Positions 1 to 8,279 of a stretch of DNA of 8,279 bases are shown here, piece after piece. Made by a program: the position numbers and the translations under genes. Numbering within the stretch: the first letter of the stretch is position 1; the number at the start of each line of letters is the position of its first letter. Source of the DNA: a virus (taxonomy: Duplodnaviria > Heunggongvirae > Uroviricota > Caudoviricetes); IMG/VR virus record IMGVR_UViG_2695420456_000001, positions 1 through 8,279 of that record. One strand, 5' to 3'. The notes below the pieces were generated by a model. The model was not told the DNA's origin, did not search any database, and saw nothing but the letters and a program-made list of their open reading frames with translations.

Positions 1-379
1 CCTTGCGCTCTTCCGGCTCAATTTCGCCGTCTGCCTCCGCAATGGCCACCGCCACATCCAGCACATCTTCCGCTTCACGCGTATCGTGTTTCACATCTTC
101 AATTTCACGCAATGCCGCTCGACGACCAATTTTAAAGTTCGTATCCAGCTGACCGATAATGGTTGCGCTAATCGCATTAATTTCTGACGTAAACGCGGAC
201 AACGCAGGCTGGTTACGCAAGACCTGCTCGATCTTCGCTTTCTCTGAAGCCTCACATTCACCATCTGCATAGGCCACCAGATAGGCAGCATTAATAACCG
301 CCTGTGCCAGATCACGTTTCTCAAACTTTTTAATTTCCACTGCCGCTCGGCGGGCTTTTTTACCAAAAATACCAAACAT
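1..379 (-). CDS. TerB-like domain protein, partial (about 126 N-terminal codons; C-terminus lies beyond the window start)
   Basis: ATG at 379..377 with AAAGGAA 7 nt upstream. Own translation MFGIFGKKARRAAVEIKKFEKRDLAQAVINAAYLVAYADGECEASEKAKIEQVL...VAVAIAEADGEIEPEERK shows two ADGE motifs in an Ala/Glu-rich helical context, as in TerB (tellurite-resistance) domains. Frame runs open to position 1. The ORF-track entry 91..408 is a different frame and looks non-protein-like. Confidence 0.55.
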   Translation of the reverse strand, partial: MFGIFGKKARRAAVEIKKFEKRDLAQAVINAAYLVAYADGECEASEKAKIEQVLRNQPALSAFTSEINAISATIIGQLDTNFKIGRRAALREIEDVKHDTREAEDVLDVAVAIAEADGEIEPEERK

Positions 380-511
380 CGTGACGTTCCTTTGGGTGGG
401 TGAGCCAACGCCCGGGAGCGATCTGCCCACAGAGAAAGTCACACTGACCACTCCGTAAGCTCACCCCCGAAAGGCTCTGTGGTTGATATGCGCCGGGCGT
501 GGCGCGGATAC

Positions 512-534
512 AAAAAAGGCCGCCAATAGCGACC
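512..534 (-). terminator. Rho-independent terminator (minus strand) downstream of the 69-aa gene
   Basis: Minus-strand RNA GGUCGC-UAUUG-GCGGCC (6-bp stem with one G.U pair) followed by UUUUUU. The G.U pair becomes a C-A mismatch on the plus strand, so it is minus-specific. Confidence 0.55.
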
Positions 535-568
535 TCAGTTACGGGATTATTCTGGGGTTAAACGACTG

Positions 569-778
569 TTACTCCCCCCAGACAAAATCATCACTTCCTG
601 TTCGATGCGAGCCATAGTGAACCTCGTACTTATCTCCCATCTTTCTTGCTTCCATTTCTGCGTCTTCCTCTGTCGCAAAAACCCCAACAAGATGCCAGGG
701 CGAGCTTCTTACCACAGCCCAACCTTTAACCCATCCTTTGTTGTCCTTATCTTCCATTAACACTTCAGAAACAAACAT
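569..778 (-). CDS. Hypothetical small protein (69 aa), possibly DUF2188-like
   Basis: ATG at 778 with AGGAGA 5 nt upstream; stop TAA at 569-571. Translation MFVSEVLMEDKDNKGWVKGWAVVRSSPWHLVGVFATEEDAEMEARKMGDKYEVHYGSHRTGSDDFVWGE. All three Arg codons are AGA, AGA and CGA. Confidence 0.55.
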   Translation of the reverse strand: MFVSEVLMEDKDNKGWVKGWAVVRSSPWHLVGVFATEEDAEMEARKMGDKYEVHYGSHRTGSDDFVWGE

Positions 779-830
779 ATTTATCTCCTTGTGGGTACCC
801 AGAGATATTTTATGATTGCTCCCGGTCAGA

Positions 831-1055
831 TCAATAAAGTGGCTTCAATTTTGCCTTAATGATCAAATCAGGGTGATTGACGGAATCGTACACCACCTCA
901 ATATTTTCATCCGTGGCGTCGATAAGATATTCTTTTACATAAGGACCTGTTGATTTTCCATGAAATACATCTTCAACAAGTACACTCTCCCCCTGAACAA
1001 CACGAAAACTAACTTCTGTTTCGAACGGACCAATCGTCACCATCAGTTTTTTCAC
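831..1055 (-). CDS. Hypothetical small protein (74 aa), unrecognised family
   Basis: GTG start at 1055 with AGGAGG 4 nt upstream; stop TGA at 831-833. Translation MKKLMVTIGPFETEVSFRVVQGESVLVEDVFHGKSTGPYVKEYLIDATDENIEVVYDSVNHPDLIIKAKLKPLY. No signal peptide is evident. Confidence 0.5.
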   Translation of the reverse strand: MKKLMVTIGPFETEVSFRVVQGESVLVEDVFHGKSTGPYVKEYLIDATDENIEVVYDSVNHPDLIIKAKLKPLY

Positions 1056-1107
1056 ATAGCCTCCTGATAAGCACTCGATTTATTAGTTAATGGTGTAACG
1101 CAGATAC

Positions 1108-1132
1108 AAAAAAAGGCCCGCAAAAGCGAGCC
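1108..1132 (-). terminator. Rho-independent terminator (minus strand) immediately after the tRNA cluster
   Basis: Minus-strand RNA GGCUCGC-UUUU-GCGGGCC (7-bp stem with one G.U pair) followed by UUUUUUU. It is homologous to the 512..534 terminator. Confidence 0.6.
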
Positions 1133-1145
1133 AAGTAAATAAATA

Positions 1146-1222
1146 TGGCACGTTGTACTGGATTCGAACCAGTGACCGATTGCTTAGAAGGCAATTGCTC
1201 TGTCCGACTGAGCTAACAACGC
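1146..1222 (-). tRNA. argO: tRNA-Arg (anticodon UCU)
   Basis: Manual cloverleaf on the reverse complement: acceptor GCGTTGT/ACAACGT, D-arm GCTC..GAGC, anticodon stem ATTGC/GCAAT with loop CTTCTAA, T-arm ACTGG-TTCGAAT-CCAGT, discriminator G, encoded CCA. The symbol is assigned from gene order by analogy with the ileZ-argN-argO cluster of Stx phages. Confidence 0.8.
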
Positions 1223-1235
1223 ATGATGCTGATAA

Positions 1236-1312
1236 TGGACCGCCATCGGGGACTTGAACCCCGCACAGCCAGCTTCGAAGGCTGACGCTCTATCCCGATG
1301 AGCTAATGGCGG
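1236..1312 (-). tRNA. argN: tRNA-Arg (anticodon UCG)
   Basis: Reverse complement folds with acceptor CCGCCAT/ATGGCGG (a C1-G72 pair), D-arm GCTC..GAGC, anticodon stem TCAGC/GCTGG with loop CTTCGAA, T-arm CGGGG-TTCAAGT-CCCCG, discriminator T, encoded CCA. The symbol is assigned by position only. Confidence 0.75.
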
Positions 1313-1319
1313 TATGTGA

Positions 1320-1395
1320 TGGTGGCCCTTGCTGGATTTGAACCAGCGACCTGGCGATTATGAGTCGCTCGCTCTCACCACTGAGCTAAAGGGCC
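1320..1395 (-). tRNA. ileZ: tRNA-Ile2 type (anticodon CAU, lysidine-type; a plain scan would call it Met)
   Basis: Reverse complement GGCCCTTTAGCTCAGTGGTGAGAGCGAGCGACTCATAATCGCCAGGTCGCTGGTTCAAATCCAGCAAGGGCCACCA has a perfect 7-bp acceptor, anticodon loop CTCATAA, T-loop TTCAAAT and encoded CCA. It closely resembles E. coli ileX as recalled. Confidence 0.85.
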
Positions 1396-1404
1396 GGGCG
1401 CAGG

Positions 1405-1433
1405 ATAATAACGGTACGTAACTAATTCTGCAA
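1405..1433 (-). promoter_or_regulatory. Candidate sigma70 promoter for the tRNA cluster
   Basis: On the minus strand TTGCAG, a 17-nt spacer, TATTAT, then the GC-rich segment CCTGCGCCC before tRNA position +1. The GC-rich discriminator resembles stable-RNA promoters. Confidence 0.45.
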
Positions 1434-1435
1434 TA

Positions 1436-1534
1436 TCATCCGTTCTGACTGACTACATTCTGAACTTCCCTGACCGTCTGCTCAAAACGCCCGCTCTCCA
1501 GCTCAACGCCAATTGCACGACGCCCCAGCGCCAT
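1436..1534 (-). pseudogene. C-terminal remnant of a DNA methyltransferase (about 32-42 codons)
   Basis: Minus-strand translation ...SVKAAMALGRRAIGVELESGRFEQTVREVQNVVSQNG* resembles the C-terminal AdoMet-binding region of beta-class N6/N4 methyltransferases (LGRRxIGxE). There is no catalytic region upstream; the frame runs into the 1558..1586 terminator hairpin. Confidence 0.3.
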
Positions 1535-1557
1535 TGCTGCTTTGACGCTACGGACAT

Positions 1558-1586
1558 AAAAAAGCCAGCCACTGGGGGAGGCTGGC
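1558..1586 (-). terminator. Rho-independent terminator (minus strand), second terminator downstream of the pR'-like promoter
   Basis: Minus-strand RNA GCCAGCC-UCCCCCAGU-GGCUGGC (7-bp GC-rich stem) followed by UUUUUU. Confidence 0.5.
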
Positions 1587-1767
1587 GAAACTCGTAGAGC
1601 AAAAGTGTTGTTACACTAACTTCGTCACAGGGTTATCCTGCAATACTCAAAATACACAATATTTACAAAACTAATAGTATACAAGGCGATCTTTAAGATT
1701 TTGTTATAAATTATTGCCTTTCTCCTCTTTCCATGAGCTTTCTGGATAGCCACAGAATTCCGGGTAC

Positions 1768-1794
1768 AGAAAAACCCGCTCAGCGGCGGGTTTT
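1768..1794 (-). terminator. tR'-like intrinsic terminator about 45-70 nt downstream of the pR'-like start
   Basis: Stem CCCGC/GCGGG (extendable by A-T pairs), loop of 6 nt, followed on the minus strand by UUUUU. A T-run on the other side could allow bidirectional function. Confidence 0.6.
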
Positions 1795-1843
1795 GCTACT
1801 TTGCCATCACGTACAAAATCGGCAAAATATCAGATTTGCATGA

Positions 1844-1872
1844 AATATATGCCTTTTAATCTACTTTTGCAA
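1844..1872 (-). promoter_or_regulatory. pR'-like late promoter immediately after the Q-like gene stop
   Basis: On the minus strand TTGCAA (1872..1867), a 17-nt spacer, TATATT (1849..1844). Predicted start near 1837, with a short leader ending in the 1768..1794 terminator, the arrangement expected for a Q-dependent late promoter. Confidence 0.45.
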
Positions 1873-1876
1873 TACT

Positions 1877-2545
1877 TTACTGTGAAAATGCCGCCTTTTG
1901 TTTTAAACGTGTTCTCGTCACGAACAATAAAGCCTCATTATCCAGCCGGTGAAAAATGTGTTTCATTGCAACCCAGTGGCCAGTAAATGTTTTGGACCAG
2001 TTTTTGGTTGTCACTCCCGCCAGTAATGCCAGCTCCTGGTATTCATAACCTTCCCCACCAAAAAGTTCTGCTTTTACTGCCTGCGCCGCCAGCCAGATTA
2101 ATTTTTTCAGGCGTTCCTGCGTTTTCCCTGCAATTTTTCTGGTACCAGATTGAGTATTAAATTCATTCCACGCCCACTGTGTTATCGCGATCTGATATTC
2201 CCAACAAATGCTCTCGCTGTAACACCACAACAACCAGGCTTTATGATGTTCTTCAAGAGACAGAACAGCCCGCCGCCACGATGATGTCGAAAACTCAACC
2301 GGACTGACCAGAGGAATTGACGTCCCCTTCGCCAGCGATTGCTTCCCCGGGATTGGTGGATTATCCCGCGTTATCATTTTTCCAGTCACTTCATCGCGGT
2401 ACCGGATTTTTTTTCGCCTGTAACGCCCTGTATCGAACATGGCATTCTCTTGCCAGGCTTCAAACTGACCTTTTGTTGCCCCACTCAAATCAGCGGTAGC
2501 GATAATGAGCTGCTCACGCACAAACTGTAAATACTGGTTATTCAT
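1877..2545 (-). CDS. Putative late-gene antiterminator Q-like protein (222 aa), not lambda-Q type
   Basis: Position is canonical: directly after rusA and directly before the pR'-like promoter, tR'-like terminator and tRNA trio. Likely start is ATG 2545, overlapping the rusA stop as ATGA; the track start at 2551 is GTG. No lambda-Q zinc-finger Cys pattern is present, so the family is uncertain and the call rests on synteny. Confidence 0.55.
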   Translation of the reverse strand: MNNQYLQFVREQLIIATADLSGATKGQFEAWQENAMFDTGRYRRKKIRYRDEVTGKMITRDNPPIPGKQSLAKGTSIPLVSPVEFSTSSWRRAVLSLEEHHKAWLLWCYSESICWEYQIAITQWAWNEFNTQSGTRKIAGKTQERLKKLIWLAAQAVKAELFGGEGYEYQELALLAGVTTKNWSKTFTGHWVAMKHIFHRLDNEALLFVTRTRLKQKAAFSQ

Positions 2546-2904
2546 GCGCACTCCAGTTCTGTGATTTTTATTCCAAGCCTCCCACCTGATACTTTCACAC
2601 CACGAATTACGCGAATGTCATCGAATTGCTCGTCGTCTTCCGCAAATCCGGCGTGGATAAGGGAGTCGAGTAAACCTTTCAGGATGTTGTCGAGGTCGCG
2701 GCGGCGGGAGTCTGGAACGTCTGCGATGACTTTGATACGGAGTCGTGATTTGGTGAAAATGTCTAACTTGAGTTGGCGGATGATTTGCTGAACGTCTTTT
2801 CGGTATTTCTGGCCTTTATCGCTGATGTAGTATTGGCTTCCCCGTCTTCGCCAGTAGGTGTTCAGCGACGGCGGATATGGAAGCACAAACTGATATTCGT
2901 TCAT
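2542..2904 (-). CDS. rusA: Holliday-junction resolvase RusA
   Basis: 120 aa, MNEYQFVLPYPPSLNTYW...DSRRRDLDNILKGLLDSLIHAGF...GGRLGIKITELE, matching E. coli RusA hallmarks (PDxRRRDLDN, acidic catalytic residues). Start ATG overlaps the ybcO-like stop as ATGA. Confidence 0.85.
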   Translation of the reverse strand: MNEYQFVLPYPPSLNTYWRRRGSQYYISDKGQKYRKDVQQIIRQLKLDIFTKSRLRIKVIADVPDSRRRDLDNILKGLLDSLIHAGFAEDDEQFDDIRVIRGVKVSGGRLGIKITELECA

Positions 2905-3191
2905 GGCTTAATCTTCCCCTCCTTCAGCAGTATCGCCTGCGTCCTGATCACGCCTTCAAGGTGGTAAAGTCTGGCGTCTTTGTTGTCGAGGTTATGGGTG
3001 CGTCGGTCGATTTCATCGTGACACGCGCTACAAGCCCATGCGCCGATCAGGTCGTCAGGCTTTATTCCCGTTCCGCAAATTCCAGCCATCCGGTAATGTG
3101 CCAGAACTGTAGTTTCAGGGTTTCCATTGCATACGCCGTAAATACGTACCTGGCATTCTCTGCCGCGCGCTTCTTTGCGTAGGTTAGCCAT
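2901..3191 (-). CDS. ybcO: YbcO-like DUF1364 protein (Cys-rich, putative nuclease)
   Basis: 96 aa, MANLRKEARGRECQVRIYGVCNGNPETTVLAHYRMAGICGTGIKPDDLIGAWACSACHDEIDRRTH..., closely resembling DLP12 YbcO as recalled. It sits directly upstream of rusA as in DLP12. Confidence 0.8.
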   Translation of the reverse strand: MANLRKEARGRECQVRIYGVCNGNPETTVLAHYRMAGICGTGIKPDDLIGAWACSACHDEIDRRTHNLDNKDARLYHLEGVIRTQAILLKEGKIKP

Positions 3192-3913
3192 TAAGCAGCC
3201 TCCCCTGTTACTTTCAGCATTCCGTTATCGAGCAGCTTTCTGGTCAGCCACTGTTGACCACGCCCGGTGATTTTTGTGGTGAACGATATCTGTATTCCGT
3301 GATTTGTATTGACCGCTGTTTCTTTCACTGTGAAATAGCCGCGATCCATATATTCCTGCATTGGCACATTGCGCCGGGAACCTGAAGCAATAAGGATTTT
3401 GTGTTCGCGCATCCACGCAAACAGTTTGTTTGGACCAATACCAACAACCTTTGCATAGTTTCCAATCAAAATTCCGCTGGCCTCGCCAACGCGATCGGCA
3501 AACTCAACTTTAGGTGCGGCAATTGCGAGCTGGTTTTCCAGTTGCATTTTCTGCTCAGCAAGATCAGCAGCAAGGCGCAACGCTTCTGGTAGAGTTTTGG
3601 GGATATTAACCGCAGCGTCTTCAAGCTCTCGCCAACGGTCAACAAGACGAGCGGTGAATTCCGGCGACAACTGGGCAACGACAATAATGCTGTCTCGCTT
3701 ACCTTGTTCGCCTTCGAATACATACACACGAAAACTTTGATTTAAGCCTAACCCATTGATTCTTCCACAATCCTCAATTTGAGGATGTCGGATAACACCA
3801 TTTTTAGCCAGCATTTCGATAGTACGTTTCACATTGTCATGACGCTTACCTGTAAGCTCAGAGATTTCAATGCTGGTCATTTTGATGACGTTGCTATTTA
3901 TCAGCTCGTTCAT
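3191..3913 (-). CDS. Phage antirepressor (Rha-type N-terminal domain, KilAC/ANT C-terminal domain)
   Basis: N-terminus ...MTSIEISELTGKRHDNVKRTIEML... is Rha-like; C-terminus ...YAKVVGIGPNKLFAWMREHKIL...NVPMQEYMDRGYF... is KilAC-like. The second ATG (3913) has GAGAGGA 7 nt upstream; the first ATG (3919) is only 1 nt from it. The stop overlaps the ybcO start as TAATG. Confidence 0.8.
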   Translation of the reverse strand: MNELINSNVIKMTSIEISELTGKRHDNVKRTIEMLAKNGVIRHPQIEDCGRINGLGLNQSFRVYVFEGEQGKRDSIIVVAQLSPEFTARLVDRWRELEDAAVNIPKTLPEALRLAADLAEQKMQLENQLAIAAPKVEFADRVGEASGILIGNYAKVVGIGPNKLFAWMREHKILIASGSRRNVPMQEYMDRGYFTVKETAVNTNHGIQISFTTKITGRGQQWLTRKLLDNGMLKVTGEAA

Positions 3914-3946
3914 TGTCATGTCCTCTCATATTGAAAATTCACCAAT

Positions 3947-3968
3947 AAAAAACCCAGCCGAAGCTGGG
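3947..3968 (-). terminator. Rho-independent terminator (minus strand) between the Roi-like gene and the antirepressor
   Basis: Stem CCCAGC/GCUGGG with a 4-nt loop, followed on the minus strand by UUUUUU. Confidence 0.65.
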
Positions 3969-3987
3969 TTTGTTAAGTTGTCAATTG

Positions 3988-4692
3988 TCAGTAGCGATGT
4001 AGTGAAGGAGGTAATTCTTTGTTCTTAAGCCTTACCCATGCGGAAAGATTCGTTGGTCCGTCTGGCTCATTAATATCAACATCTCGTGTGTGATTGATTA
4101 AAACGTCTCTCGCCATTCCAATAACATACGAGAACTCATGACCGTAGTCGTAACATCTGCCGGAATAGTTCGATTGAATTTGCTTTAGCGCTGGATACAA
4201 TTCGCGGAATAATGCCTGTGAGCGGTTAGCATAATCCCACAGCCATACAAGGCTGTCTGTTTCTTTTGCGGAAAGCCCGTTGAGCTTCTTCTCTTGTTTG
4301 CCAGTATTTTTCTCGCACTGGCTGAAATAGCAGTCTTCCAGTTTTTCGAACACTTCCCACGCCTGATCGGTTTCGAGCATTTTGGCGTGACGGGCTGCTC
4401 CGCGTTCTGTCCAGAGGATGAGGGAGCGGGCTTTCGGGGAAATTTGTAACCCTCTTAAAGATGGTTGCAAATTTTGTGAGTTACTTAAAGTAACCCGCAA
4501 AATTTTCAACTCATCACCAACAACCTTGAAAAAGTGTTTACCCTCAACAAAACGCTCGGAATTACGGGTGTAATTTACTTTGATGTTGTTGATCTCGGTA
4601 CAGTAAAGCTGTGCCAGTAACTCGGTAGTGATAACGGGAATTTGGTTGTGTGTAATTGGGGAAAGAGTTTCGACAGAAATCTGAGTGGCCAT
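3988..4692 (-). CDS. ORF6N-domain phage protein (Roi/antirepressor-like)
   Basis: N-terminus ...[10 protein letters not shown]...[11 protein letters not shown]...[16 protein letters not shown] is characteristic of ORF6N/Bro-N-related domains. Probable start is ATG 4692 (GGAG 9 nt upstream) rather than the track start at 4710. Confidence 0.7.
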
Positions 4693-4856
4693 AACGATAA
4701 CTCCGTACATTTGGACATTATCGCCACCGTCAGGTGCTAATCATCATGGTGGCGAACTGTGCGGGGTTAGCACTACCGGGTACGGAAACCGGCGAGCCTT
4801 TCGGCTCCCCCACACAGCCCGCCATAAATCGCGAATGTGACTGTGCAAACGATATG

Positions 4857-4877
4857 AAAAAAGACGCGGGCGCGTCT
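4857..4877 (-). terminator. Rho-independent terminator (minus strand) downstream of ninE
   Basis: Minus-strand RNA GACGCG-CC-CGCGUC (GC-rich 6-bp stem, minimal loop) followed by UUUUUU, inside a larger imperfect palindrome GATATGA...TCATATC. Confidence 0.6.
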
Positions 4878-4969
4878 CATATCGCTCCGTAAACATCCGG
4901 GGTGCTAATCCCGACGCCAGATTTTGCTGGCGCGTGAGGAATATAGCCCCGAATAAATCATCGCGTCAA

Positions 4970-5152
4970 TCACCTTGTTTTCCTCGCACGATGTCTTAGC
5001 CACCGGATATCCCACAGATGAGCCGTGTAGTTGAAGGTTTTTACGTCAGATTCTTTTGGGATTGGCTTGCGTTTATTTCTGGAGCGTTTCGTTGGAAGGT
5101 ATTTGCAGTTTTCGCAGATGATGTCGGTGATACTTCTTCGCTGTCGCCTCAT
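4970..5152 (-). CDS. ninE: NinE-family protein (60 aa)
   Basis: [60 protein letters not shown], recognised as NinE-like. Start ATG overlaps the Dam stop as ATGA. The track ORF 4970..5242 is an upstream extension overlapping dam. Confidence 0.7.
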
Positions 5153-5676
5153 GCCGCCCTTCTGACGCCCTGCCCGATCGCCATCAATGCCGCTTTGGAT
5201 ACGGTAGTAAACATCCGTCGAGGACTGATGAACGGTCGCCAAATCAGCAGCATGGAACCTTTGCTGTTTCCCTTCTTCTCCAGCCCTGTCGATGGTTCGA
5301 TAAAATTAATCCGTCCATCAGTGATAATACGAACTTCGTCAACACTCTCCAGAGCCTTGCTGAACCATCCGACTGACATATCCTCTGGTACAAGCATAAC
5401 TACCGTCTGTCGCTGTTGTATGCACTGCTCAGCGGCTTTTTCCACCCACGGCCTGATATTGCTGTACGGTGGGTTATTCCAGATTGCACCGTGGCTTACC
5501 CACTCAGAATTGAGCGCGTCGTCGGCCTCAGTTAGCCAGTGAGCACACAGAGCATTTTTGTCGCTCGCTGCCGAATCCAGCCAGAATCCAAACTCAATAT
5601 CCAGTGCATCAAAAAGCCAAAGCGGCGTTTGCCAGCAGTCCTTGTCGTGTGCTGGCGTATTTGATTTGATAGTCAT
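5149..5676 (-). CDS. Phage Dam-type DNA N6-adenine methyltransferase (175 aa)
   Basis: N-terminal [26 protein letters not shown] and catalytic NPPY motif (WNNPPYS), typical of the small phage Dam family. Start ATG overlaps the ninB stop as ATGA. Confidence 0.8.
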
Positions 5677-6119
5677 GCAGCCCTACCTTTTCGTTGTGAC
5701 CATTCATACTCTCGCCGGGAGTCATCACTCCACCGCACGTTGCGCTCTGAGCCGAACCAGAACATGATTTCGATAAGCTCAGTCATGCTGGCCTTCCGCA
5801 TTTTGCTGGTACGCACGCCAAGCATGACAACGCCACCGTCGATACCAGGCCCACTTCGTTGCTCCAGTTTTTTGGTCTTAAGCCACAGGGCAGTGAACAG
5901 GTCTTTCCAGTCTTCCGGCGCCAGCCGTTGACCATGCCATAGCACCTGACGCGAAACATCGTTCAGCATCGGCCACATACGGTCATTCTGCGCTTTGCTG
6001 CGCCTGGGTTCTTTAACGTGGACTTCGTGGGGTGACTTGTCGTCGATGGGTAGTGAGAGAATGGCGTCTATGGCGTTATTTCTGATTGCTTCGTTGCGAA
6101 GCAGAAAGGTTTGCTTCAT
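5673..6119 (-). CDS. ninB: Recombination protein NinB (148 aa)
   Basis: MKQTFLLRNEAIRNNAIDAILSLP...DVSRQVLWHGQRLAPEDWKDLFTA...[23 protein letters not shown] aligns with lambda NinB as recalled. ATG 6119 has GGAG upstream; the track start at 6221 is an N-terminal over-extension. Confidence 0.85.
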   Translation of the reverse strand: MKQTFLLRNEAIRNNAIDAILSLPIDDKSPHEVHVKEPRRSKAQNDRMWPMLNDVSRQVLWHGQRLAPEDWKDLFTALWLKTKKLEQRSGPGIDGGVVMLGVRTSKMRKASMTELIEIMFWFGSERNVRWSDDSRREYEWSQRKGRAA

Positions 6120-6312
6120 CTCCTGCTCTCCGGTTCCATTTTTCAGCCGCCGCAGCAACTGATGGTGCCCATGCCCCCCTGGCTTCACAGAGGTCACATT
6201 CTGCATAGCCCCACACATCAATATTTATTCCGGCCTCAACCCACAGACGAGCATTACCGCCGCAAAACGGACATTCTTTTAGCTTTGGCTGGGTTAATGA
6301 TAGGTCGCTCAT
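6076..6312 (-). CDS. lar: Lar-family restriction-alleviation protein (78 aa)
   Basis: Zinc-ribbon pattern KECPFCGG...CDLCEA followed by AAEKWNRRA, the hallmark of Lar/RalR from Rac. ATG 6312 has AGGAG 5 nt upstream. The 3' end overlaps the ninB start by 44 nt in another frame. Confidence 0.7.
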   Translation of the reverse strand: MSDLSLTQPKLKECPFCGGNARLWVEAGINIDVWGYAECDLCEARGAWAPSVAAAAEKWNRRAGDEANLSASQRSNQK

Positions 6313-6322
6313 GCTCACTCCT

Positions 6323-6538
6323 TCACTTTAAATCCAGACTCCGGATAATTCTGTTGCGCTGAAACTCATTGTTGAGTTTGAACAACCGTCGAAGAACACG
6401 GTCACGCGGATAGCGTCGTGCGGCAGGTGAATGCTCATACAACTCATCAAGCGGCAAACTGGACGATGAACGATACCGATACCAACGCACCAACTCTTCA
6501 CGAAAATTAGCCCTGACAAGCTCAGCTATCGTACTCAT
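6323..6538 (-). CDS. Hypothetical Arg-rich small protein (71 aa), unrecognised
   Basis: ATG 6538 with GAGGAGG about 10 nt upstream; stop TGA at 6323-6325 overlaps the lar ribosome-binding site. Translation MSTIAELVRANFREELVRWYRYRSSSSLPLDELYEHSPAARRYPRDRVLRRLFKLNNEFQRNRIIRSLDLK has 14 Arg. Confidence 0.45.
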   Translation of the reverse strand: MSTIAELVRANFREELVRWYRYRSSSSLPLDELYEHSPAARRYPRDRVLRRLFKLNNEFQRNRIIRSLDLK

Positions 6539-6670
6539 TTCTTAAAACCTCCTCAAACGCATTCTGACGCATTTTTCATTCTCGCTGCTTATCGGCATGC
6601 CTTGCACGTGCTTACCTCACCACAGAGCGATTGTGATGCCTTAAAAGCGATTTATTGAAGTGATATTTGC

Positions 6671-6949
6671 TTAATCGAAATTCTTTTCTTTGATTCCTGC
6701 GGCCCTGATGGCTTTCATTACTGCAATTACCGTTTTGTCACGCCCATCCTCATAACCCATCGCATAAGCACCTTCTTCACCATCTTTCCAAAGGTCGTCA
6801 TTCGATTCGGGCCAGTCGATATCCAGTTCAATAGCAGAGCGCGATGCCTGCCATATCACCCAGGCAAACTCTTTTAATTCATCGTCTCCCGTGAACTGGC
6901 TTTTGTCTTTTGACCACCAGTTTTCAAACTGTCGGTAGCTATCGTTCAC
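6671..6949 (-). CDS. Hypothetical acidic Trp-rich small protein (92 aa from GTG), unrecognised
   Basis: Probable GTG start at 6949 with GGGGAGAGGGGA just upstream; the track TTG start at 6964 lies in the terminator T-tract. Translation (M)NDSYRQFENWWSKDKSQFTGDDELKEFAWVIWQASRSAIELDIDWPESNDDLWKDGEEGAYAMGYEDGRDKTVIAVMKAIRAAGIKEKNFD has 21 Asp+Glu against 12 Lys+Arg, and 5 Trp. Confidence 0.45.
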   Translation of the reverse strand: MNDSYRQFENWWSKDKSQFTGDDELKEFAWVIWQASRSAIELDIDWPESNDDLWKDGEEGAYAMGYEDGRDKTVIAVMKAIRAAGIKEKNFD

Positions 6950-6962
6950 TCCCCTCTCCCCC

Positions 6963-6994
6963 AAATAAAAAGGCCTGCGATTACCAGCAGGCCT
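6963..6994 (-). terminator. tR2-like rho-independent terminator directly after ren
   Basis: Perfect 8-bp stem AGGCCTGC/GCAGGCCT with an 8-nt loop, followed on the minus strand by UUUUUAUUU. Its position after ren matches lambda tR2. Confidence 0.6.
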
Positions 6995-7019
6995 GTTATT
7001 AGCTCAGTGATGTAGATGG

Positions 7020-7310
7020 TCATCTTTTAACTCCATATACCGCCAATACCCGTTTCATCGCTGCACTCTGGCGACACTCCTTAAAAATCAGGTTCGTGCT
7101 CACCTTTCCTTCCCGTTCTTCCCTGGTAGCAAACCGGTAATACACCGTTCGCCAGACCTTACCATCAATGACCAGGATTCCTGCCCGCGCCATTTTAGCC
7201 GCAGCCTGATTTATGCTGGTTACGGTTGCGCCTGTTACCGCGGAAACGTCCTGTGCACAGAAGTTCTTATGCGTCCCGAGGTAATGAATAATTGCCTCTT
7301 TGCCCGTCAT
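7020..7310 (-). CDS. ren: Ren protein (96 aa)
   Basis: MTGKEAIIHYLGTHKNFCAQDVSAVTGATVTSINQAAAKMARAGILVIDGKVWRTVYYRFATREEREGKVSTNLIFKECRQSAAMKRVLAVYGVKR, near-identical to lambda Ren as recalled. Start overlaps the P stop as ATGA. Confidence 0.85.
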   Translation of the reverse strand: MTGKEAIIHYLGTHKNFCAQDVSAVTGATVTSINQAAAKMARAGILVIDGKVWRTVYYRFATREEREGKVSTNLIFKECRQSAAMKRVLAVYGVKR

Positions 7311-8008
7311 ACACTTGCTCCTTTCAGTCCGAACTTAGCTTTAATTTCTGCGATCTTCGCCAGAGCCTGTGCTCGATTTAGAGGTCTGCCGCCCATGACA
7401 GGAAGTTGTTTTACTGGTTCAGGTATCGTCTCACCACGGTTAATTCGTGCTGTCATACAGGTCAGTTCATCGGCAGCCTTGCGCCGTAATTCCGCGTCAG
7501 TCAGCGCATTGGCCCGCATGTTCTGGTACAGGTTGGTAACCAGCCAGTAGTGCGCGTTTGATTTCCACGGATAAGACTCTGCATCCGGATACAGGCCACG
7601 CTTCCGGCAATACTCGTAAACCATATCAACCAGCTCGCTGACGTTTGGCAGTCCGGCGATAACGGATGCTTCTTCCCGGCACCATGCAACAAACTGCCCG
7701 GGTGATGGAAGAAATGGTCGATTCTGCCGACGGGCTACGCGCATTCCTGCGTTAACCTGTTCCATCGAGGTGATCCCGTTTTCCCGGAAAGCCAGAACCC
7801 ACTGGCGGCGGATTTCATTCAGTTCGTTCTGGTCCCGGTTAGCCAGACTCGCCGGGAAAGTTGCCAGTAACTGGCTGAACACACCGTTGATGATCTGCGC
7901 TACCTGTTGTACCTGCGGCTTTTCGTCGTACTGTTCCGGCATGTTGTTGGCGATCCGACGCATCTGCTCACGGTCAAAGTTAACCATCTGTGCGGCGATG
8001 TTTTTCAT
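7307..8008 (-). CDS. P: Replication protein P (DnaB helicase loader, 233 aa)
   Basis: MKNIAAQMVNFDREQMRRIANNMPEQYDEKPQVQQVAQIINGVFSQLL...AKFGLKGASV, essentially lambda P in length and sequence as recalled. Start overlaps the O stop as ATGA. Confidence 0.9.
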   Translation of the reverse strand: MKNIAAQMVNFDREQMRRIANNMPEQYDEKPQVQQVAQIINGVFSQLLATFPASLANRDQNELNEIRRQWVLAFRENGITSMEQVNAGMRVARRQNRPFLPSPGQFVAWCREEASVIAGLPNVSELVDMVYEYCRKRGLYPDAESYPWKSNAHYWLVTNLYQNMRANALTDAELRRKAADELTCMTARINRGETIPEPVKQLPVMGGRPLNRAQALAKIAEIKAKFGLKGASV

Positions 8009-8279
8009 AAATCCACCCCGTAAATCCAGTCAGTGTTTGTCAGGTCGAGTTTTGGTTTTCCAGCTGTCACGCCAGCCTGTTGCTTGTTACGGTTGATTTC
8101 GAGTTGGGTCCACTTGTCGCGGAGTTTGGCCGGACTTAGCACGTTACCGGACCAGAAGTTGTCCTGGCATGCCCAGCGGAACAGCACGCACATGTCGCGG
8201 TGGTTACGTCCGTCACGTTCACGCATCAGGCGGATATCGTTAGCCCACCCTGCAAAATTCGGTTTTCTGGCTGATGGTG
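8005..8279 (-). CDS. O: Replication initiator O, C-terminal part (N-terminus beyond the window end)
   Basis: The frame is open from the window edge: ...PSARKPNFAGWANDIRLMRERDGRNHRDMCVLFRWACQDNFWSGNVLSPAKLRDKWTQLEINRNKQQAGVTAGKPKLDLTNTDWIYGVDL*, matching the lambda O C-terminus as recalled. The track ORF 8005..8226 is only its Met-initiated tail. Confidence 0.85.
   Translation of the reverse strand, partial: PSARKPNFAGWANDIRLMRERDGRNHRDMCVLFRWACQDNFWSGNVLSPAKLRDKWTQLEINRNKQQAGVTAGKPKLDLTNTDWIYGVDL

Follow-up and report, generated by a model that had tools for sequence, protein, structure and literature searches.

The nin region of lambda, P22 and their relatives carries tightly packed, non-essential genes (ninA to ninH, ren, lar) that behave as exchangeable cassettes, and in the mosaic model of this region the joints between cassettes lie at short conserved sequences, including overlaps of stop and start codons. 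Among anti-restriction proteins, the DNA mimics (T7 Ocr, ArdA, T4 Arn, Ugi) are small and acidic and are expressed early by phages. Here we analyse two adjacent small genes, designated gene A and gene B, at positions 6323-6949 on the minus strand of an 8,279-nucleotide stretch of Caudoviricetes DNA (IMG/VR record IMGVR_UViG_2695420456_000001, positions 1 to 8,279; hereafter the window). Genes A and B share the operon position, tight packing and non-essential cassette behaviour of the nin genes, and their joints likewise lie at short conserved sequences that include stop/start overlaps; they are homologous to none of the named nin genes. Their closest described relatives are two protein families catalogued without function: the gene A product shares with Phage_phiTE_015 (Pfam PF26207) the conserved N-terminal helix, the WQASRAAIE helix and the AIRAAGIK C-terminus, with no essential difference, and the gene B product does not differ in any respect from DUF7301 (Pfam PF23975). 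Both genes have carried the annotation 'hypothetical' since the genomes of 933W and VT1-Sakai and now stand in curated families, and the locus is structurally and genomically ordinary for a nin region. What is added here is the family assignment, the refutation of the idea that the two proteins are partners, a picture of cassettes joined by linkers, and the removal of a spurious lead to Cro.

Family membership and coding status

The gene A product (92 amino acids; 12 Asp, 9 Glu, 8 Lys and 4 Arg; net charge -9; isoelectric point 4.40; six Trp) corresponds at 98-100% identity to 933W L0091, VT1-Sakai H0045 and the RefSeq 'phiTE_015 family protein' WP_001000130. It matches phrog_343 over residues 1-92 (E 4e-29); PF26207 is precomputed on clusters whose representatives are 98-100% identical to it; and its alignment with phiTE_015 of Pectobacterium phage phiTE (JQ015307) extends over 84 columns (hhalign probability 98.2%, E 5.5e-14). 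By these comparisons gene A is a member of PF26207/phrog_343, catalogued without function. A profile search finds at least 1676 proteins of this family at E <= 0.01, all of them small and all unnamed, among them Sf6 gp48 and the protein of the virulent rV5-like phage phiTE. The gene is present in 602 of 5426 complete E. coli genomes.

Members of the gene A family begin with a conserved helix (SRxQFExW) and a hypervariable segment rich in insertions and deletions. Next come a second conserved helix (W.AWQASRAAIE), another variable loop that in most members is acidic, and a C-terminal end that is again conserved (AIRAAGIK). Across 121 homologues the net charge is never positive (median -8) and the median number of Trp is five; some loop variants lose much of their acidity, such as that of homologue P0066 (ITAPKFIDSREALAKGFTVDYSNGFGD). 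In the protein from the window the inter-helix segment is short by comparison with relatives of 100-130 amino acids, the acidic-aromatic loop reads DIDWPESNDDLW, and the C-terminus is the variant ...IKEKNFD* instead of the ...IKVKE* of others. It also starts with GTG, at position 6949, behind GGGGGAGAGGGGA, the strong ribosome-binding site recognized in the original prediction; its homologues have ATG at the same position after the same preceding sequence (L077, for example, reads GGGGGAGAGGGAAATGAA). The AlphaFold2 model (per-residue confidence, pLDDT, 70; predicted template-modelling score, pTM, 0.44) comprises helices at residues 3-15, 23-40 and 72-83 and a small beta-hairpin, and the acidic residues fall mainly in the stretch 41-63, which is modelled as disordered (pLDDT <50).

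The gene B product (71 amino acids; 14 Arg; net charge +7; isoelectric point 10.8) corresponds, likewise at 98-100% identity, to the annotated genes of the 933W and VT1-Sakai genomes, here 933W orf6 and VT1-Sakai H0044, and also to phi24B vb_24B_15 and the RefSeq 'DUF7301 family protein' WP_000103678. It scores 91.5 bits against PF23975 (gathering cut-off 27; E 3.8e-26; profile positions 1-64 of 65) and matches phrog_1785 over positions 1-71 of 71 (E 2.1e-33), by which it is a full-length member of PF23975/phrog_1785, again catalogued without function. The DUF7301 motif RYW.SSSLP..E...RP....YRRDRVL.RL is kept, as are all residues conserved throughout the family (S26, L28, E32, P38, R45, D46 and V48); the C-terminal helix is variable. 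An exhaustive profile search of 1.84 billion representative proteins found 46 representatives of the family at 50% identity, 44-111 amino acids long except for two short fragments, with no domain fusion or remote annotated relative among them. The basic charge is conserved (median net +7), the predicted structure is a helical hairpin (pLDDT 75, pTM 0.48), and the gene is present in 544 of 5426 complete E. coli genomes.

A reading of gene B as a regulator with a Cro/YdaS-type helix-turn-helix was considered and rejected: the match to P22 Cro (1rzs, E 8e-7) came wholly from one chimeric homologue, P0113, and gene B alone matches only DUF7301 in Pfam and is modelled as a plain helical hairpin. 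P0113, from a Logan contig of 3.2 kb, is a 68-amino-acid protein whose N-terminal half is P22 Cro and whose C-terminal half is DUF7301 from YPRDRVLRRL onward; it may be either an assembly chimera or a real recombinant.

The original prediction held that neither protein could be assigned to a family, which the matches to PF26207/phrog_343 and PF23975/phrog_1785 overturn. Its description of the proteins fares better: the net charge of -9 and the length of 92 amino acids stand for gene A, with six Trp counted instead of five; the 14 Arg among 71 residues of gene B are confirmed by composition; and the acidic, Trp-rich character of the one and the basic character of the other extend across their families. 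In the searchable literature no paper on either gene was found by family, accession, locus name or phrog or Pfam identifier, or among work on anti-defence in the nin region; the paper on phiTE concerns another locus, since it puts the escape locus of that phage between genes 202 and 203.

RefSeq coding sequences coincide exactly with both open reading frames (ORFs) in a 99.8%-identical E. coli prophage (WP_001000130, WP_000103678), which upholds the location and minus-strand orientation given for them in 6323-6949. ORFs as long as A and B are common by chance, 62 of at least 40 amino acids being found in the window, so the case for coding rests on the scores of the family hidden Markov models and on the ratio of non-synonymous to synonymous substitution rates (dN/dS). 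This ratio is 0.05-0.28 for gene A (pairs with dS up to 0.5) and 0.43 for gene B (one well-diverged pair only). Both genes have strong Shine-Dalgarno sequences, and their GC content is 46-48%, compared with 49% for the window. By the family scores and dN/dS, A and B are real protein-coding genes under purifying selection.

Assortment and junctions of the two genes

Searches with gene A or gene B brought together 157 IMG/VR loci, on which the positions of P, ren, A, B, lar, ninB and dam were determined; co-occurrence was counted only at loci with a visible slot boundary. The commonest arrangement is that of the window, ren-A-B-lar-ninB; the others are ren-B-lar, which has no A; A-ninB, which has neither B nor lar; B'-A-ninB; B'-A-B-lar, in which the upstream B' is a 45%-identical paralogue of B; and one in which B is followed by two small hydrophobic ORFs, A' and ninB. 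Gene B is missing from 19 of 76 loci that bear A, gene A from 12 of 46 loci that bear B, and lar from 14 of 75 loci that bear B. Five distant DUF7301 genes were also looked up, four of which lie in arrays with other small genes. In the stretch read, three of the five lack a Phage_phiTE_015 gene; the fourth has one about 2 kb downstream, and in the prophage of the fifth one is, according to the contig, either adjacent or separated by a single small ORF. The existence of A without B, of B without A, of both orders and of intervening genes argues that A and B are frequent co-residents of one slot that sort independently and form no obligate module. Together with the junctions described below, the arrangements show A and B assorting independently of each other and of lar, as read from these loci, via recombination at short linkers.

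In locus L120 (4221-4654) the two hydrophobic ORFs that lie between B and a variant of A encode 63 and 60 amino acids and are likely membrane proteins. In Stx2a_F349 (L167, 1945-2848) and in L148/L129 two DUF7301 paralogues, about 45% identical, flank one A gene (B'-A'-spacer-B-lar); with two paralogues in one slot, the family has been duplicated or acquired twice there.

The original prediction cast gene B as the basic partner of gene A, and the corresponding explanation is a two-gene module that works as a toxin-antitoxin-like pair or as a heterodimer of an acidic and a basic subunit. The genes are adjacent, small and oppositely charged, and a DUF7301 gene and a Phage_phiTE_015 gene adjoin each other, with the order reversed, in Stx2a_F349, L082 and the distant prophage L164 as well. 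Against such a module stand the single-gene loci counted above, the occurrence of both orders, the arrangement with other ORFs between the two genes, and the 132-nucleotide untranslated spacer that separates them here, with no coupling. The two families also differ greatly in size, with at least 1676 proteins for gene A and 46 representatives (at 50% identity) for gene B; PADLOC reports 0 families in the region, and Pfam and NCBIfam give no enzymatic, toxin or antitoxin domain in either gene. We disfavour this explanation and consider it highly improbable, and the partnership of the original prediction falls with it.

Over the 901 bases surrounding the two genes, identity is 99.7% with phage VT1-Sakai and 99.9% with several E. 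coli chromosomes, and the window, by its gene content, is the early-right (pR) operon of a VT1-Sakai-like lambdoid prophage, on the minus strand. The order on that strand is P, ren, a terminator hairpin, gene A, the 132-nucleotide spacer, gene B, lar, ninB and dam, followed by ninE, an ORF6N/P22_AR_C antirepressor gene, a gene for a KilAC/Rha protein, ybcO, rusA, Q and three tRNA genes. The features that bear on the slot are as follows.

7307-8008, minus strand: P
7020-7310, minus strand: ren (Ren-like phrog_142, E 3e-41; RefSeq 'protein ren'), upstream neighbour, given for context only
6971-6994, minus strand: tR2 homologue, an intrinsic terminator hairpin with a T-run found by terminator scan, left boundary of the variable slot
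6671-6949, minus strand: gene A (ORF, RefSeq coding sequence, phrog_343, PF26207, dN/dS)
6539-6670, minus strand: non-coding A-B spacer of 132 nucleotides, known from sequence, with the gene B ribosome-binding site at its 3' end
6323-6538, minus strand: gene B (ORF, DUF7301, phrog_1785, RefSeq coding sequence)
6307-6332, minus strand: conserved linker AAAGTGAAGGAGTGAGCATGAGC, which holds the gene B stop codon, a Shine-Dalgarno sequence and the lar start, and is a cassette junction
6076-6312, minus strand: lar, restriction alleviation (PF14354, E 1.9e-10; TIGR03655, E 4e-17; phrog_599), downstream neighbour, given for context only
5673-6119, minus strand: ninB
5149-5676, minus strand: dam

The position that the original prediction gave to the two genes, a hypervariable slot for early accessory genes between ren/tR2 and lar/dam, is borne out by the tR2 homologue on one side and lar on the other. 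The terminator scan finds at the former an 8-bp stem with six GC pairs followed by TTTTTATTT, and the hairpin is base for base the Sf6 feature annotated as 'terminator, homology to phage lambda tR2 / boundary sequence bsq6'. A tiny ORF over this hairpin (about 6946-7023, minus strand) is called H0046, 933W orf4 or 'ninA' in some records; the corresponding sequence in Sf6 carries the tR2 and boundary-sequence annotation, so that this ORF is probably no gene, and it is distinct from genes A and B.

The joints on either side of the cassettes are short and recur. The 3' end of gene B, ...TTTAAAGTGAAGGAGTGAGCATGAGC, combines the gene B stop codon, a Shine-Dalgarno sequence and the ATG of the next gene; in other phages the same linker of about 20 nucleotides closes A genes of the variant type (...GIKVKE*), and the gene that follows it is lar, another small ORF or a membrane ORF. 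On the upstream side, the sequence after tR2, TTTTTATTTGGGG[G/A]AGAG..., is common to whichever cassette stands first. In some homologues of gene A a change of TAA to GAA extends translation into a frame that overlaps the ninB start, giving the tail EANIHASQRSNQK, as in Lar here. By sequence comparison these joints are the classic lambdoid mosaicism of the nin region, with 'boundary sequences' and ATGA overlaps, and such mosaicism implies that part of the C-terminal conservation of gene A is constrained at the level of DNA. A kinship between the A and B families, prompted by 'GIKV'-like tails in two long homologues of B, was rejected (hhalign probability 0.45%); the tails are better explained by the DNA linker AAAGTGAAGGAGTGA.

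The A-B spacer is present at full length in 169 phage records; where the flanking genes were examined, it joins a gene A ending in ...KNFD* to gene B, and it is absent where gene B directly follows tR2. At its end lies the gene B ribosome-binding site (GAGGAGG, nine nucleotides, ATG). The possibility that it contains a small RNA or cis-acting element, a promoter or a terminator was rejected, as Rfam gives no match in 6300-7000 (searched up to E <= 1), the scans show no consensus site, and the fold is no better than that of shuffled sequences (minimum free energy, z = -0.10). The last 40 or so nucleotides of the spacer (6539-6580, minus strand; AAAATGCGTCAGAATGCGTTTGAGGAGGTTTTAAGAA) recur at 85-88% identity in phi92-like virulent phages (Justusliebigvirus). 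In the one such phage checked, phi92 (L176, 1201-1242), the matching stretch is almost wholly intergenic, and some other records annotate a hypothetical protein there; no homologue of gene B lies nearby.

Neighbouring features of the operon

Further genes stand near the slot in related phages. Shiga-toxin (Stx) phages of the PA28 type have a 612-nucleotide HNH homing-endonuclease gene between ren/tR2 and gene A (L162, phage PA28, 1396-2007), and in Stx2a_F349 genes for an endonuclease and an IS66 transposase lie upstream of this variable slot.

Farther along the window, positions 4745-4946 (minus strand) match three Rfam families: C4 antisense RNA (78.8 bits), isrK (74.4 bits) and the c4 a1/b1 target (49.8 bits). 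The matches lie directly upstream of the ORF6N/P22_AR_C antirepressor gene (3988-4710, minus strand), which the KilAC/Rha gene follows, and the block looks like an antisense switch of the P1/P7 immI type over ant, set within the nin region. Downstream of Q are three tRNA genes (1146-1395, minus strand; Met/CAT, Arg/TCG and Arg/TCT), typical of Stx phages; the 1.1 kb past them contains only small ORFs (74, 69 and 105 amino acids) and no ORF of the size of stx.

Expression and candidate roles

In lambda, genes downstream of tR2 are transcribed from pR only if N permits read-through of tR1 and tR2. Genes A and B lie downstream of the tR2 homologue, and a simple consensus scan predicts no minus-strand sigma-70 promoter in 6000-7400; the two observations point to N-dependent, delayed-early expression. 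Genes A and B would accordingly be made only when antiterminated transcription from pR passes tR2, and would be products of infection or induction, not of the lysogen.

One or both genes might instead be morons, expressed from the prophage for lysogenic conversion or superinfection exclusion. The neighbouring ren is classed as an exclusion protein (phrog_142), and about 10% of complete E. coli genomes carry the genes, in up to four copies each. Opposed to this are their place downstream of tR2, where they share strand and operon with the early-right genes, the prediction of neither a promoter nor a flanking pair of terminators, their unremarkable GC content and the occurrence of the gene A family in the strictly virulent phage phiTE. 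We regard moron status as very unlikely.

The account that we favour, to which we give a little better than an even chance, is that A and B are two separate non-essential, delayed-early accessory proteins of the nin region that act by binding. The absence of a catalytic domain, the small size, the conserved extreme charge and, for A, the combination of a conserved core with variable loops suggest that each would act stoichiometrically on a target and not as an enzyme. The A protein would consist of a small conserved helical core (SRxQFExW, W.AWQASRAAIE, AIRAAGIK) carrying two hypervariable, mostly acidic loops, and these loops may contact a basic protein of the host, of a defence system or of DNA metabolism. 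The B protein would be an Arg-rich helical hairpin of about 70 amino acids with its invariant residues at the tip (SSSLP...YPRDRVLRRL), through which it may bind nucleic acid or an acidic protein. The grade given to this account blends two unequal parts: the identity of the genes and their cassette behaviour, of which we are nearly certain from sequence comparison, and a role in host takeover or counter-defence, which is doubtful. An anti-defence role is possible for either protein, and host takeover or counter-defence would be, tentatively, the single most likely class of function.

A more specific explanation, in line with the position two genes upstream of lar and dam, is that A is a DNA mimic or another direct inhibitor of restriction or defence, forming an anti-restriction block with Lar and Dam. 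Like the DNA mimics, A is small, acidic and, as predicted, expressed early, and it lies near other anti-restriction genes; its acidity is family-wide in the 121 homologues, and loops that vary on a constant core would be in keeping with an arms race. It differs from them in that its charge is modest and largely concentrated in the loop modelled at pLDDT <50, and so may not form a rigid DNA-like surface, and variants such as P0066 are much less acidic. Comparisons of sequence and of fold reveal no resemblance to Ocr, ArdA, Arn, Ugi, Gam or any inhibitor of solved structure, and searches of PDB sequences with A and B gave no real match. Moreover, A often occurs without lar, A-ninB arrangements exist, and close relatives are under purifying and not diversifying selection. 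Taken together, these points make a DNA mimic quite unlikely.

Another possibility, rather unlikely in our estimate, is that A, B or both are accessory factors of phage DNA replication or recombination, perhaps modulating single-strand-binding protein (SSB), RecBCD, NinB/Orf or the replication complex. This would fit the theme of the neighbours P, ren, ninB, dam, rusA and ybcO, which include the nucleases RusA and YbcO, and in every lambdoid genome examined the slot has the replication module on one side and ninB/Orf on the other; the Arg-rich hairpin of B could bind DNA, and the A loop DIDWPESNDDLW may bear a superficial likeness to acidic tails that dock on DNA-metabolism proteins. Both genes, however, accompany replication modules of unrelated kinds (that of lambda P, the primase-helicase of phi24B, DnaC-like loaders and the Sf6 gp44 type), both are dispensable in many relatives, and neither has homology to any replication or recombination protein.

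A bolder version of the binding account, which we consider unlikely, would make Phage_phiTE_015 a widespread inhibitor scaffold that displays loops, and DUF7301 a separate Arg-rich inhibitor or RNA binder. Each loop variant on the three-helix core would then neutralize a different protein of host immunity or DNA metabolism, and the slot between tR2 and ninB would be an island of counter-defence genes, home to two or more inhibitor families not yet described.

Several points weigh against the favoured account. No homology ties either protein to any target. The confidence of both structure models is only moderate (pLDDT 70 and 75, pTM 0.44 and 0.48 for A and B, respectively), and the charge density of A is modest, at -0.10 per residue. 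The C-terminal conservation of A (IKVKE*) is partly shared with the DNA-level linker and may not reflect protein function. The loci were chosen by similarity to A or B and are mostly near-identical Stx prophages, so that they show which arrangements exist and not unbiased frequencies, and a simple consensus scan could miss a weak or non-sigma-70 promoter.

The two genes are carried by medically important Shiga-toxin phages and occur, frequently as multiple copies, in about 10% of complete E. coli genomes, and the gene A family numbers well over a thousand proteins from temperate and virulent phages. If either gene encodes a counter-defence or host-takeover factor, it would represent a new family of inhibitors and would help to explain the host range of Stx phages.

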